NCBI GenBank assembly: GCA_944392145.1
Contig: CALXVS010000002.1
Coordinates: 6,525-70,524, forward strand
Length of the DNA: 64,000 bases
Source of the DNA: an uncultured Alphaproteobacteria bacterium
GTDB lineage: Bacteria; Pseudomonadota; Alphaproteobacteria; CAAHEQ01; UBA3637
Direction: 5' to 3'
Numbering within the stretch: the first letter of the stretch is position 1; each line of letters opens with the position of its first letter. Of this stretch, positions 9,001-15,000 are shown one piece after another. A program made the position numbers.

Positions 9001-12000
9001 GGGCGACAGTCGGGGTTATTTTGGGGGGGCGATTGGGATATGTTTTATTTTATAATTTAAGTTATTTTGTTGAGTTTCCGTTACAGATTTTTGCTTTATG
9101 GCAAGGCGGTATGTCTTTTCACGGTGGGTTATTGGGTGTGATTGTTGCCACTTTGTTATTTGCCCATGATAGGAAGATATCACCATTTGCTATGGGGGAT
9201 ATTTTGGTCTGTGTCGCACCGATCGGATTGTTTTTGGGACGGTTAGCCAATTATGTTAACGGGGAATTATATGGTCGGGTGACGACATCTGTGCCGTGGG
9301 CGATGATTTTTCCTATGGGAGGAGCCGAACCGCGTCATCCCAGTCAATTGTATGAAGCATTGATGGAAGGGGTGGTTTTATTTTTGATTTTAAATACCCT
9401 TTGGTGGTTAAAACCGGCCTATCGGGAACGAACGGGATTTTTGACGGGGCTGTTTTTTATTTTATATGCCGTGTTCCGGTTTTTTCTTGAATTTTTTAGG
9501 GAACCTGATGCGCACTTGGGATTTATTGTTTCCTTTTTATCCATGGGGCAAATATTGTGCGTGCCGATGGCCTTGTTCGGCGTGTGGGTTTTATTGCGTT
9601 CATCTCCTAAACGACAATTGATTTCTGAAGACGGGGCATAGGTATGATGTTTTCAAACAGACGGACATTTTCACTGCTTCAACAAGGGGGACGATTATTA
9701 AAGTTAAAGTTGCTTGTGCCGATTTTACGGTCAAAACATCCACCGGAATATAAGGCACGCGGTGTTGCCGTCGGATTGGCATGGGCTATGACACCGTTGG
9801 TTGGTATTCAGATGTGGCTTGTCTTTATGACATGGCTTTTTTTGAAAAAGGTGTTTCACTGGCATTTTTCATTGGGGTTGGCAGTTGCCTGGACATGGGT
9901 CACAAATGTTTTTACCGTTCCGCCGGTTTATTATATGTTTTATGCGACGGGACAAATCATGCGTGCTCGGCCGATTGGCGCCTATCAACAATTAAAGGAC
10001 CTTATTTCCGAAACATTTTTAAGTGATTTAAGTTTTTGGGAACAATGGGTGTTGTTTTTTAAATTGTTGGTTCGGGATTGGGGTGTTTCAATGGCGGTCG
10101 GATGTGTGCCATGGGCAGTTGCATCGGCAGCGTTAGGATATTATTTAACATATCGGTTTGAATGTCGCCGAGCGCAAAAAAAGAAAAAGGAGGGGTCCCA
10201 TGATCACACTTAAAACACTGTCATCTTGTTCCCGTGTTACGCATGGATTTTATAATGCGGACGAATCAAGTTTGTTAAAGGGGCTTGTTTTAATGAATCA
10301 GGTTCACTCGGCCGATGTTTTGGTTGTTAGTGAAAAACCGGAACAAATGCCCGCTGTTGATGCATTGGTGACCAAAACACCAGGATTGAAATTAGCGGTT
10401 AAAACGGCTGATTGTGCTCCGGTTTTGTTTGCTGATCCCGTTCACGGAGTTATCGGAGCGGCACATGCCGGATGGAAAGGAGCATTTCAAGGTGTTTTGG
10501 AAGCTACCGTTTTAACCATGCTTCATCAAGGGGCTGCTTTAGAAAATATTTGTGCCGGTATCGGACCGCATTTGCAAAAGGAAAGTTTTGAGGTTTCAAA
10601 ACAGATGCTTGATTTGTTTCCGGTAACGCAACATGTTTTTTTTGAACGGATAAACGATCGTATTTTATTTGATTTTCATGCATATGTTCGCCATCGTTTA
10701 GATGCCATGGGCTTAAAAAGTATTGAGGGCGTACGTGTGGATACATATACGGATTCAGCATATTTAAGCTATCGGCGTGATCCCGAAAATCCGGCGCGGC
10801 AATACAGTGTTATTTCACTTTGCTAAAGAAGTTGCTTTTTTTTTAAAGTCGGCGTATACTGCCCTTATCTTGTGGTAACCGAAGGGGGATATCATGTATG
10901 ACTCATTGGAATTTATCATTGCCTGTGGCGGTTATTCAACGCGTAATTACCCGCATTCAAAGACAGGGGCGCATAAAAGCCTGATGCCGTTTGGTGATGT
11001 GCGGTTTATTGATTTTGTTTTAAAGGACATTATTAAAAGCGGTGGGCGTCACATTACAATTGTGTGTTCTAACCAACATGTGGTTGATGTTTTCAAAAAA
11101 GCCCTTTCTCGTGATGAAGCAACGGAACTTAAGTTGCGGCGGAGTGGTCGCACGATGATTGCCGATGTGCTTCAAAGCACTTTTTTACCGGCTGATGTTG
11201 ATTTAAAGTTTGTCATTCAGGATAAACCGTTGGGAACGGCGCACGTGTTAGGGTTGGCGCATCGTGTGTCACCCGATCGGCACGGGGTGTTAATTTTCCC
11301 CGATGACATTATTGTATCAAAGAATGCCGAACGTCCATTTATTCGGAAAATGGCCGAGAACTTTTTTCAAAACGATCACCAAATTTTATTGACCGGTCGG
11401 CGTCAGGCAGATGTGAGTAATAATGCCATTATTGACAATGGCCGATTGGTTGAAAAGCCAAAAACACCGGTGTCGGATGTGGCGGGATATTCGCCGATTA
11501 TTTTACCGAAAGCCGTGATGGATTTTATTGAGGATCAGACAACCATGTTAGAAAAAGGGGAATCTTTACCCAATAAAGTTGTCGGGAGCGAATGGGTTTA
11601 TGTGGATGGTATCAACGCTTTTTTGGATCAGCATCCCGCCGGACCATCCTATACTCTTAAAATGTTTATGTTAAGTGGGGAAGAGGAATTATTGGATACG
11701 GGAACATTACCGCTGTATGAATTGGCACAACTGTATGCATTGTTAAATCTCTCTGTTTTTAAAGAAAAAAACCGTGCTTATGTGCAAACGTTGTTAAATC
11801 AAAACAGTTAGTTAAAAGGTTTTTGGGGCGAAAATCATTGTGTTTTCGTTGTCACAACCGGATAAGCAGTCTGTGCTTGATGTATTGCTGTGACTAATAA
11901 TACGGGCATCACTCCATTGCGTGTAACAAACAAATTGTTCACAAACTTGTTTCGGAATACGCGTATATGTCACGGTAAAACTGGATTGCACTCCCGTGTC

Positions 12001-15000
12001 ATTTCGGTCGGGACGATAAATATCTGTCTTATTGTTACTGCTTTTTTCGTCTGTATATATTCCATAAGTCAGCGAAGCTGCCTTTACCCTGATTGTACCG
12101 CCAAAAGCGTTATACCAAAATTTACCAAGATTGCTTTCTCCGCTTGTATCACCGGAGGATGTATCATCAGATGTGTTGCTGTTTGAGTCGCTGAAACATG
12201 TTTTTTGCAAAATGTCATTTTCACAAATGGTATCCATATCCAGTTTGGTAAAGTCACGATTCCATGTGTATAAATCGGTAACACCGCGAATGATTTCCTG
12301 AACCTCTGATTGCACGGTTGATGCACGAAAAAGGTTCAGTTGATATGATAAGGCCGAGGCACCACCAACCGTAATGACCGAAATGATGGCAATGACGGCT
12401 AACATTTCCAGCATTGATCGCCCGGTTTCATGTGTTTGTATCATTAAAAAATCCTTTCTGTGGTCAATTTCGGTTTATTTTGATGTAAAAATTAATTTAT
12501 CTCTAAACAAGCAAGACGATTTACCGCATCGGCAGCCGGGTTGTTGGTTGGGTGCCTGAACAGCAACAGAATACCAATCAGTATTACACATCAGCTGACG
12601 GGTTACTTTTTCGGGTAAATTGGTATATTCTACTTGAATGGCGCCGTCGTTCATAGTGACAATAATGTCTCCCCCGAAATCGTTTGTCCAGTGGTTACTA
12701 CCGGTACATTTTTTAGACAGAATTTTATTCTCACAAATAGTTTTTTGAATTTCGGCGGTTGAAGTTGGAAGGGTTCGGTGGAATGAATACAAATCAAAAA
12801 CACCGCGAACGATTTCTTCCACTTCATACTGAATGGTGGCGGCACGGTATTTGGTTCTGACCAAATCCACAACGCTTAATCCTGAAATGGTTATCACTGC
12901 AATCAACGAGATAACCCCCAACATTTCAATTAAAGAACGTCCCGATTCGTGTGTGCCGCGCATAACGGTTTTTATCCTTTCATAAAAGATATGTTTATTA
13001 TACTGTGAAATCTGTTTTAAAGCAAGGTGCTTTTTATATAAATTTTAAGTGCTTGCACAAAAAGAAAAAACATGATATGTTTCTTTCAAGATGATGATTT
13101 GTAATCAAAAAGAATTAGAAGCGGTTTGCCGGCGTTTTGCGGCGCACCCTTTTGTAACAGTGGATACCGAATTTGTTCGTGAAAAAAGCTATTATCCAAG
13201 ATTATGCCTGATTCAGTTGGCTTCACCCGATGAAGCGGTGTGCATTGATCCGACGGTATCGGATTTTGATTGGGCACCGTTACGGGCGTTGATGCAAAAT
13301 GAATCGGTGGTGAAAGTGTTTCATGCCTGTCGTCAAGATATGGAAATCTTTTTTCTTCAGGCCGGTGTTATCCCGACACCGTTATTTGATACACAGGTTG
13401 CCGCGATGGCATTGGGCTTTGGTGACAGTGTGGGGTATCAGGCGGTTGTTAAGGCTGTCACCGGTGTGTCGCTGGATAAAAGCATGCGTTACACGGATTG
13501 GCAAAAGCGACCTTTAAGTGCGCAACAGGTTCAATATGCCCTGTGTGATGTAACGTATTTAAGGGATGTGTATCTGTGTTTTAAAGACAAATTGGCGCAA
13601 ACCGGTCGTGTAGCGTGGATCGCCGATGAAATGGCGGTATTGCAGAACCCAAAAACATATCAAACGAATCCGGAAACAGTTTGGATGCGTTTTAAAATGC
13701 CGTTGAATGAAGGCTTACAATTATATCTGTTTTCTAAATTGTGCGCCTGGCGCGAAAAAAAAGCTCAAGCATCAGATAAGCCGCGTCGCCATATCATGAA
13801 AGATGAGGCACTTCAGGAATTGGCTATTACCCCTCCGACAAAAGCAGATGATTTTGAACATATGCGTCATTTATCGCAAGGCTTTTCCAAAACGGCATGG
13901 GCCGAAGAACTGTTGGATTTATTAACACGCGAAACAGCAGTTTTTGAAACACAAATGAAAAAGTTTACATATCCCGAAACCCACCATGTGCCAATCAAAA
14001 AGAAAACATTGCATGATTTGATGCATTTGCTGGTGGATTTGGTGTGCGAAAAAAATAAAGTTGCACCAAAACTGTTGGCTTCATCCGCCGATGTCACAGA
14101 TTTTGTATGCGATCGCCCCTGCCGTTTTTTGGAAGGTTGGCGTTATGAGTTATTGGGACACCTGGCCCAAGATTTAAAGGCCGGTAAACTTAATTTTACC
14201 TATAACCCTGCCAAAGATACGGTTGATTTCGGGGAATTGGAGTAGTTAAAACAGGGCTTAAAAAAGCCCTGTTTATAAATTACAACAGATCATTTAATAA
14301 ATTCATACATTTGATTTTTTGTTGCATATTTGCTCGTCCATAGACATTAAGTGTAAACGAAACATTTTTATGACCCAAAATTTCGGATAGAGATTTAACA
14401 TCAAACTCCGGAATTTCTATGGCTCGAACTGCGAAAGTATGCCGAATTTCATGAAACTTAACACTTCTTAGATTATGTTTTTTTAGAAAACGTGCAAAAA
14501 ATTGTCTATATGTTCTTGGCTCTGTCGGTTTCATTCGTCCTGTTAAAAAATATTGGTTAGGATTGTCAGTATAATATTTTTTTATGATGTTGATTAAAAG
14601 TGATGGAAGAGGAATCGTTCGACACGAACTTGCTGTTTTGGGAGCTCCAATATAAACATATGAAGTTCCTTTAATTTTATCATATATCCGCTGAACAGTT
14701 CTTTGAATGTTTATTGTTTTATCAATAATTGAAATATCTCTCATTTGCAAACCGCATAACTCTCCAATACGAATACCAGTAAATAATGCAACTAAAATAC
14801 CAGCGGTTCTACGATTCATTTTCATGTAGATACATTGGATCAAAGCAAGCTCTTCGTCTTTTGATAATGAAATGACCTTTTTTAGTCCTAAATCTTTTGG
14901 GTATTCAATTAAATCCCAGTTTAACATCGGATATTATTAAAATCTGTCCAAAAGAAAGCCAGACCATATAACAACTCTTTATCAGAGTTTGCAAAATATT

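Follow-up and report, generated by a model that had tools for sequence, protein, structure and literature searches.

The DNA analysed here is a stretch of 64,000 nucleotides (nt) from contig CALXVS010000002.1 of assembly GCA_944392145.1, an uncultured Alphaproteobacteria bacterium; this whole stretch is called the window, and coordinates refer to it unless another contig is named. Its main subject is a tandem pair of minus-strand genes that encode prepilin-like proteins of 162 and 210 amino acids (aa). The pair is flanked on one side by a sugar nucleotidyltransferase gene (NTP_transferase, 10894-11811, convergent, with the stop codons abutting) and on the other by rnd (13091-14245, divergent), and a third gene of the window has a related N-terminus. 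The features discussed are as follows.

12475-12963, minus strand: upstream member of the pair, a putative 162-aa prepilin with a predicted type IVb (PilS-like) fold, mature form 154 aa; intact open reading frame (ORF).
11812-12444, minus strand: downstream member of the pair, a putative 210-aa prepilin with a predicted type IVb (PilS-like) fold, mature form 202 aa; intact ORF.
12865-12963, minus strand: predicted class III signal peptide of the 162-aa protein, leader MRGTHESG (12940-12963), read from the sequence.
12346-12444, minus strand: predicted class III signal peptide of the 210-aa protein, leader MIQTHETG (12421-12444), read from the sequence.
12964-13090, no strand assigned: divergent intergenic region between the pair and rnd, a probable promoter region of the pair, read from the sequence as a weak call.
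28535-29773, plus strand: putative modular pilin gene with a class III signal, a pilin head and Cys repeats like those of epidermal growth factor (EGF) and teneurin, split in one frame by a single in-frame TAA.

Each gene of the pair is preceded by an AGGA-type ribosome-binding site, and a gap of 30 nt separates the two. Their products are clear paralogues (33% identity by BLASTP, E 7e-31), the 210-aa protein carrying two low-complexity loop insertions rich in Ser, Thr, Asp and Asn relative to its partner (at about residues 88-106 and 128-151). A preliminary description of this DNA had reported two adjacent genes of these lengths between a sugar nucleotidyltransferase and rnd, had quoted the motifs given below, and had called the N-termini prepilin-type with a non-canonical Arg at position +1. 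All of this held: the genes lie exactly where they were placed, the motifs are present and conserved in orthologues, and Gly at -1, Glu at +5 and a hydrophobic N-terminal helix segment (alpha1N) were found.

With a slash marking the predicted cleavage site, the N-termini read MRGTHESG/RSLIEMLGVISLIAVITISG in the 162-aa protein and MIQTHETG/RSMLEMLAVIAIISVITVGG in the 210-aa protein. Cleavage is predicted at G/R because Gly(-1) and Glu(+5) fix the register, which places it at G8/R9 in both proteins (R9 codons 12937-12939 and 12418-12420) with Glu+5 as codon 13 (12925-12927 and 12406-12408); alpha1N comes next and in the 162-aa protein extends to about residue 33. The segments that follow the site, RSLIEMLGVISLIAVITISGLSVV and RSMLEMLAVIAIISVITVGGASAL, hold about 25 hydrophobic residues and the invariant Glu+5, the charged Arg+1 being the exception, and so the pair shows what defines a class III signal peptide (SPIII), namely a leader ending in Gly or Ala and 20-25 mainly hydrophobic residues with the usual Glu+5. 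Such a cleavage, which presumably takes place, would release mature proteins with the predicted N-terminal peptides RSLIEMLGVISLIAVITISGLSVVDLVR and RSMLEMLAVIAIISVITVGGASALSYQLNLFR.

The same N-terminus recurs throughout the relatives of the pair. Among the hits listed, position +1 is Arg in 118 of 118 and in 146 of 148 homologues, Gly(-1) is present in all 118 and 147 relatives examined, and Glu+5 is strictly conserved in the homologues listed. The family consensus is [EQ][ST]G/RSM[VI]EMLGVLAIIGVLS.GGIAGY, preceded by leaders of 6-82 residues (median 11.5). Arg+1 thereby appears as a signature of the lineage; the +1 residues reported for type IVb pilins are Met, Leu and Val, with Trp in R64 PilS. 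In the literature we found no report of the motif, of a pilin with Arg+1, or of relevant RF32 or CAG-239 pili.

The site of the pair is conserved between species. The order rnd, 161-aa gene, 205-212-aa gene, NTP_transferase is kept in at least two further species (L001-L005), across which amino-acid identity is 62-68% for the pair, 68-69% for rnd and 80% for the NTP-transferase gene. In the unsaturated comparison, the 162-aa gene had a ratio of nonsynonymous to synonymous substitution rates (dN/dS) of 0.21 and the 210-aa gene one of 0.13, with 0.10 for rnd and 0.07 for the NTP-transferase gene (the flanking genes span 0.07-0.11), and the pair is under purifying selection. The motifs G/RS[ML][LI]EML, TICEN.IL, FGG.I.V and P..V..Q..C are invariant among the orthologues of the pair, and all five aligned Cys columns are conserved.

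The family to which these genes belong is large. Because of a word index that overlooks divergent relatives, an initial search for homologues of the 210-aa protein returned only 4 close orthologues; scanning in full by HMMER with a profile of the pair reached 1826 cluster representatives at E<=1e-3 (97 at E<=1e-10), and a search with the third paralogue at least 7863 proteins. In GTDB species genomes, at least 597 stretches matched [EQ]xGRSM[VIL]EML, 581 of which were confirmed. Among the 80 best loci, several of which stem from one metagenome-assembled genome (MAG), 79 belong to MAGs named uncultured Alphaproteobacteria, proteobacterium or Azospirillum sp. from human, ruminant and rabbit gut, and the remaining one is a 3-kb contig binned as Acidaminococcaceae. 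At least nine family genes occur in one MAG. Small pilins (113-160 aa) often stand in tandem arrays in this lineage, where modular pilins of up to about 1000 aa are also common, and the C-terminal modules across the superfamily are diverse (EGF-like, lectin-like, Cys-rich repeats). On long contigs the family members are usually orphans amid housekeeping genes (L006-L008), and a precomputed Pfam domain is absent from nearly all of the 118 listed relatives. Identical copies of the window's own proteins are also found in assemblies of NCBI, ENA and Logan, for example in the human-gut contigs BRZ_AB and BRZ_QH. What had been taken for a three-gene family is, judged from these searches, a lineage-wide pilin superfamily of thousands of putative members, unannotated and nearly confined to gut and rumen Alphaproteobacteria MAGs.

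Two observations made at family loci are added here. The contigs that carry the window stop inside a 446-aa Cys-rich repeat ORF (L091 1-1341, where the contig ends, some 6-7.3 kb beyond the right edge of the window) that resembles the C-terminal modules of modular pilins; such Cys-rich repeat genes probably break assemblies, and the size of the family is therefore likely under-counted. In L008, a family pilin stands directly upstream of a permease-decarboxylase pair.

The third gene of the window had been listed at 28535 as a further member of the same small family. Its N-terminal signal and helix are indeed shared with the pair (leader MKEDFMNETAISTQAG, with G16/R17 at 28580-28585), but these alone are common to the three proteins, and the gene belongs to a different subfamily. 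The 121-aa ORF first noticed (28535-28900) is the 5' part of a longer gene that continues in the same frame as a 287-aa ORF (28910-29773), in which Pfam recognises EGF_TEN and EGF_2 domains, the two being separated by a lone TAA (28898-28900). This stop falls inside the pilin head, after the conserved Cys112 and before the second conserved Cys and the last strand. In the 90% cluster of the third protein, 14 of 15 members are 121 aa long, and the other (P0149, an allele from another sample) has CAA (Gln) at the position of the TAA and continues into the EGF repeats. We read the third gene as a putative modular pilin gene with a nonsense allele that is widespread and, in public assemblies, the prevailing one, rather than a small paralogue of the pair; the split could be a recent pseudogenisation, a functional split or a case of readthrough.

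The globular parts of the pair point to a particular class of pilin. In the C-terminal part of the 210-aa protein, Pfam matched PilS_N (PF08805) with 22.0 bits at a gathering threshold of 22 and Bundlin (PF05307) with 21.1 bits at a threshold of 22.3, and the precomputed PilS match on its orthologues was faint. A head-only hidden Markov model (HMM) of the pair subfamily, stripped of the leader and of the initial 28 mature residues, matched pilins of the type IVb clusters L048, L089 and L090 (described below) at 1.6e-12 to 2e-8, and these pilins are themselves PF08805-positive (6.5e-16 to 8.7e-18). By this profile evidence, the heads of the pair are evidently homologous to PilS-type pilins of type IVb operons. 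A search of PDB sequences with the family profile gave a marginal N-terminal match alone (PilE1, E 0.4), and a comparison of folds was therefore needed. The AlphaFold2 models of the pair, with a predicted local distance difference test (pLDDT) of 63.9 and 67.3 and a predicted template modelling score (pTM) of 0.60 and 0.61, place a helix of some 30-34 residues (28-58 and 28-61) against a beta-sheet, i.e., the "lollipop" fold of pilins. Solved type IVb pilins were closer to these models than type IVa pilins or pseudopilins; C. difficile PilA1 came after the type IVb pilins, and the pseudopilins EpsG and PulG reached only 3.5-4.3. Profile and fold together show the pair, within the moderate confidence of the models, as predicted type IVb pilins that belong structurally to the PilS/bundlin class.

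A pilus machine of the corresponding type is present in related MAGs. In L048, the gene order is a TcpQ-domain protein, a secretin, PilO (PF06864), a protein of about 480 aa, a T2SSE ATPase, a T2SSF platform protein, a pilin-like protein of about 200 aa without class III signal, two PilS/Bundlin pilins and a PilT-like ATPase. The same type IVb cluster was found in L056, L089, L090 and L102-L105, at a conserved chromosomal site adjoining TrbC/VirB4 type IV secretion genes. The N-terminus of its major pilin, G/RSMVEMLGVLAIIGVLS.GGIAGYSKAM, has the same G/RSM[VI]EMLGVLAIIGVLS start as the family. The R64 thin-pilus variant is defined by PilO2 (PF06864) together with TcpQ/PilL, the PilN secretin, PilQ, PilR, PilS, PilT, PilV and PilM (PMC3984277), and by these criteria (PilO2, TcpQ, secretin and PilQ/R/S/T) the gene content identifies the cluster as a member of that variant. 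In addition, the closest plasmid proteins to the ATPase of the lineage are BfpD and R64/PAPI-1-type ATPases (37-38% identity; BfpD 37%), and BfpC matches the PilO2 of the cluster. In the precomputed Pfam annotation of four clusters and 10 kb to either side, an SPIII-bearing minor pilin, PilV and an A24 peptidase were all absent. R64-type operons that lack pilU are known, those of PAPI-1 and B. pseudomallei Tfp7 making use of the peptidase of another system (PMC3984277).

Further details of the cluster were seen in passing. It always stands back-to-back with TrbC/VirB4 (L089 1-2901, L090 444-2854, L102-L105) and beside a conserved Pribosyltran-Redoxin-VWA-PP2C-Pkinase-NMO block, an adjacency that recalls the link between thin pilus and conjugation in R64 and PAPI-1. 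Just upstream of the PilS pilin lies a conserved protein of about 190-207 aa (L048 8624-9247, L089 12827-13414, L090 12829-13389) with a weakly PilS/Bundlin-like head and a plain N-terminal membrane anchor without G/xxxxE, which may be a PilM2-like or a non-cleaved pilin-like component. The ATPase of L048 (5777-7486) is 82-99% identical to its top 120 listed homologues (P0350-P0469), cluster representatives from MAG contigs with a GC content of 36%-49%, whereas the pilins diverge freely; either strong constraint or a spread of the cluster by horizontal transfer could account for this.

Our preferred reading, to which we give a probability of about 0.65, is that the pair encodes orphan type IVb pilins of the PilS/bundlin class that are taken up by an R64/PAPI-1-type machine encoded elsewhere, most likely as minor subunits. 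In this scheme, each prepilin would be made with a short 8-residue leader ending in Gly and would enter the inner membrane through its hydrophobic N-terminal helix; a prepilin peptidase would then cut between Gly8 and Arg9, leaving a mature protein that begins with Arg and has Glu at position 5. Uptake would follow by a machine composed of TcpQ, a secretin, PilO2, a PilQ-like ATPase, a PilR-like platform, a PilS-type major pilin and a PilT-like ATPase, and both this machine and the peptidase would be located elsewhere in the genome from which the window derives. The scattered orphans would be low-abundance subunits, the small ones (such as the pair) acting as priming or structural minor pilins comparable to BfpI/J/K, and the large modular ones (such as the split gene at 28535) as adhesin-bearing subunits like PilV, CofB and the modular pilins of S. 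sanguinis. Minor pilins are present in all known type IV filaments (PMC10191384). Since the cluster is without a minor pilin or PilV and the orphans share the N-terminus of the major pilin, the orphans are the most likely suppliers of the minor subunits; entry into a pilus and the minor role would both follow for the pair. Of the two adaptor roles first suggested, that of a minor pilin is thus plausible, and that of a pseudopilin is taken up below.

Known systems resemble the pair to different degrees. The closest are the PilS pilins (R64 thin pilus, the Salmonella Typhi pil system and PAPI-1 PilS2; PF08805), which likewise have a class III signal with a +1 residue other than Phe, and with which the pair is connected by the PF08805 match of the 210-aa protein and by the head-only profile, through PF08805-positive pilins in PilO2/TcpQ/secretin/PilQ/PilR clusters. 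The pair differs in its Arg+1, its very short 8-residue leader, a sequence identity of only about 10-20% and its orphan position amid housekeeping genes, whereas PilS lies within the pil operon. The minor pilins BfpI/BfpJ/BfpK and TcpB/CofB/PilV are also pilin-sized or modular and share the N-terminal segment of their major pilin, and they are needed in low copy to start assembly or to bear adhesive modules. However, they sit inside their own operons, whereas the operon of this lineage has none and the candidates are dispersed (three in the 64-kb window), and PilV varies by shufflon recombination, whereas the diversity of the lineage lies in the number of paralogues. In S. sanguinis PilB and PilC, a functional domain is grafted onto a pilin module via a short linker (PMC8179133, PMC10191384). 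This layout is common to the third window gene (pilin and EGF-like repeats) and to hundreds of family members, but the S. sanguinis proteins belong to another phylum and to a type IVa-like system in a monoderm, with 1-2 such proteins per genome against a large repertoire here, and they are modular where the tandem pair is not.

Several results weigh against the preferred reading. The first concerns the motif itself, for which a search with the N_methyl model had been proposed as a check. The native proteins formally failed this check, with PF07963 scores of 11.8 bits for the 210-aa protein, no match for the 162-aa protein and 13.7 bits for the third (threshold 21.2), and TIGR02532 gave 13.3 and 14.3 bits (threshold 16.3). 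The PF07963 miss is due to Arg+1 alone, since replacing it by Phe in silico lifted all three window proteins over the threshold (21.9 bits for the 210-aa protein, 21.3 for the 162-aa protein and 23.7 for the third). Compared with the PF07963/TIGR02532 motif, Gly(-1), Glu(+5) and the hydrophobic helix are alike, and it is Arg+1 that keeps the native sequences uncalled; apart from this residue, the predicted motif of the three proteins is canonical. In the literature we found no experimental precedent for a charged Arg at the start of a segment packed in the hydrophobic core of a filament. The 162-aa protein had zero Pfam matches, and the AlphaFold2 models, built from 5-6 sequences, are of moderate confidence (pLDDT 64-67).

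The remaining points of this kind concern the machine. As the preliminary description had noted, neither a type IV pilus (T4P) or type II secretion system (T2SS) assembly gene nor an A24 peptidase was seen in the 64-kb window, where Pfam scans covered the ORFs at 26116-63447 together with 343-1194, 10894-11811, 13091-14245, 14280-14927 and 15266-15532, and the remaining ORFs in 1-26032 were identified solely by synteny with the precomputed Pfam annotation of relatives. The R64-type assembly genes (PilO2, TcpQ-domain protein, secretin, T2SSE, T2SSF) are likewise not with the pair in the window. Neither pilus machinery nor a prepilin peptidase was seen in the visible flanking contig (about 7 kb on the right and 4 kb on the left), where the left flank shows TatD, TrkH and ThiF only and the right flank ends after 7.3 kb in the Cys-rich repeat ORF. 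An HMM built from 7 A24 sequences and run against 3362 ORFs gave no match, either in the window or across 1.35 Mb of lineage DNA, in which about 0.6 copies of a single-copy gene are expected; a regular expression for the GxGDxK catalytic motif and tblastn with BfpP also missed the peptidase. Finally, the genomes with the type IVb cluster did not include the species of the window, and the pair and the machine are thus linked by lineage only.

The alternative that survives best, although we consider it unlikely, is that the pair encodes exchangeable major pilins, PilS paralogues that are polymerised in bulk on the same machine and provide antigenic or functional variation. Their mature sizes (154 and 202 aa) and head homology match the PilS pilins of the cluster, some clusters (L048) already contain two tandem PilS genes, and small pilins in tandem arrays are a frequent feature of the lineage. 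However, the pair occupies one syntenic site and diverges about as much as rnd, though faster than the NTP-transferase gene, unlike an antigenic-variation repertoire. Moreover, its alpha1N segments (AVIAIISVITVGG and GVISLIAVITISG) depart from the near-invariant GVLAIIGVLS.GGIAGY of the cluster pilins, which argues against seamless bulk co-polymerisation. The type IVb systems known so far require a minor pilin, one at least, and none is encoded in the cluster.

We also regard as improbable that the proteins remain unpolymerised, with the pilin-like N-terminus serving only to anchor periplasmic or surface proteins in the membrane or to direct their export. Genes unlinked to any machinery, the peptidase not found in the DNA searched (the window and 1.35 Mb of lineage DNA) and C-terminal modules as diverse as a display scaffold might have would all suit such proteins. 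Nevertheless, Glu+5 and the whole of alpha1N are strictly conserved and identical to those of the cluster major pilin, as filament packing demands and a simple anchor does not, and the globular heads are predicted pilin folds homologous to PilS. This reading corresponds to the earlier suggestion of a new surface-display family, which found no support; the pair belongs to the lineage-wide superfamily, and R64-type type IVb machinery for it exists in related genomes.

A much poorer case can be made for GspG-K-like pseudopilins of an unlinked T2SS. One family member bears the NCBI name "type II secretion system protein, partial", and there are weak sub-threshold NCBIfam matches to XpsH and ppd proteins (E 0.02-0.13). 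These matches reach 12-17 bits against cutoffs of 138-160, Pfam gave no match of the pair to the T2SSG/H/I/J/K models, and no gsp genes were seen at any examined locus; T2SS pseudopilins, and with them the pseudopilin half of the adaptor suggestion, were therefore rejected. ComG-type competence pilins were rejected as well (NCBIfam 13-18 bits against cutoffs of 49-75). Least credible of all is that the pair consists of decaying relics without function, as the stop codon in the third window member might suggest, and we rejected it since both genes are intact and syntenic in several species, with dN/dS of 0.13-0.21 and five conserved Cys columns.

For the pair alone, the result is a modest one, i.e., conserved orphan PilS-type pilins that are most likely minor subunits. 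The family has wider consequences. Type IV pilins are detected via their N-terminal motif, and Arg+1 hides thousands of them from Pfam and TIGRFAM; therefore, the pilus content of common gut Alphaproteobacteria is under-annotated. An invariant charged residue at position 1 also bears on the role of N-methylation and of the contact between the N-terminal amine and Glu5, and on the specificity of prepilin peptidases. The dispersed Cys-rich, EGF-like and lectin-like modules borne by pilins in uncultured gut commensals represent a candidate system for adhesion or partner recognition. A bolder and quite tentative idea, which we would sooner doubt than accept, is that every pilin, major and minor, of these uncultured gut Alphaproteobacteria starts with Arg1 and that their filaments have a distinct chemistry. 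The guanidinium of Arg1, instead of or along with the N-terminal amine, might pair with Glu5 of a neighbouring subunit in the core; the peptidase might have an unusual +1 specificity, be unlinked to pilus genes and perhaps be non-canonical; and one R64-type machine might be fed by many dispersed orphan pilins per genome, from small ones to modular adhesins of 900 residues. If so, the dispersed repertoire would offer, in place of the PilV shufflon, a combinatorial means based on paralogues for recognising hosts or partners.

The surroundings of the pair showed some minor features. In the intergenic region between the pair and rnd, a minus-strand TATAAT (12997-13002) lies 17 nt downstream of TTGCTT (13020-13025). 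The consensus promoter scan made no call for these elements because the -35 matches at only 3 of 6 positions, and the promoter and terminator scan around the pair gave a result no better than shuffles. Beyond rnd, and adjoining the pilin pair, a variable spot of low GC content (about 36%) between rnd and murA (14280-15532, minus strand) contains a truncated ORF of the phage-integrase family (215 aa) and an 88-aa N-terminal fragment of HsdR. In the relatives L001 and L002, this site is occupied by a resolvase and by a Type ISP restriction enzyme of 1620 aa, and the spot looks like a hotspot for mobile defence genes.

Other genes of the window concern the cell surface and metabolism. A GT10-family fucosyltransferase with a Glyco_transf_10 C-terminal domain (E 3e-14) is encoded at 55509-56582 on the minus strand. 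Its neighbourhood also holds a STELLO-like glycosyltransferase, a PMT_2/GT2/YdjC block (41344-44592) and, at 50456-51918, a cytidylyltransferase and an APH gene that resembles choline/aminoglycoside kinases; together with the GT10 gene, these genes may serve to decorate the cell surface with fucose or phosphocholine. A pyruvoyl-dependent arginine decarboxylase and an amino-acid permease are found at 30358-32501 (plus strand), and an Orn/Lys/Arg decarboxylase at 61120-63447 (minus strand), with a permease just past the window (L091). Lastly, a pyruvate formate-lyase and its radical-SAM activase (45506-48575, minus strand) fit a strictly or facultatively anaerobic, fermentative lifestyle.

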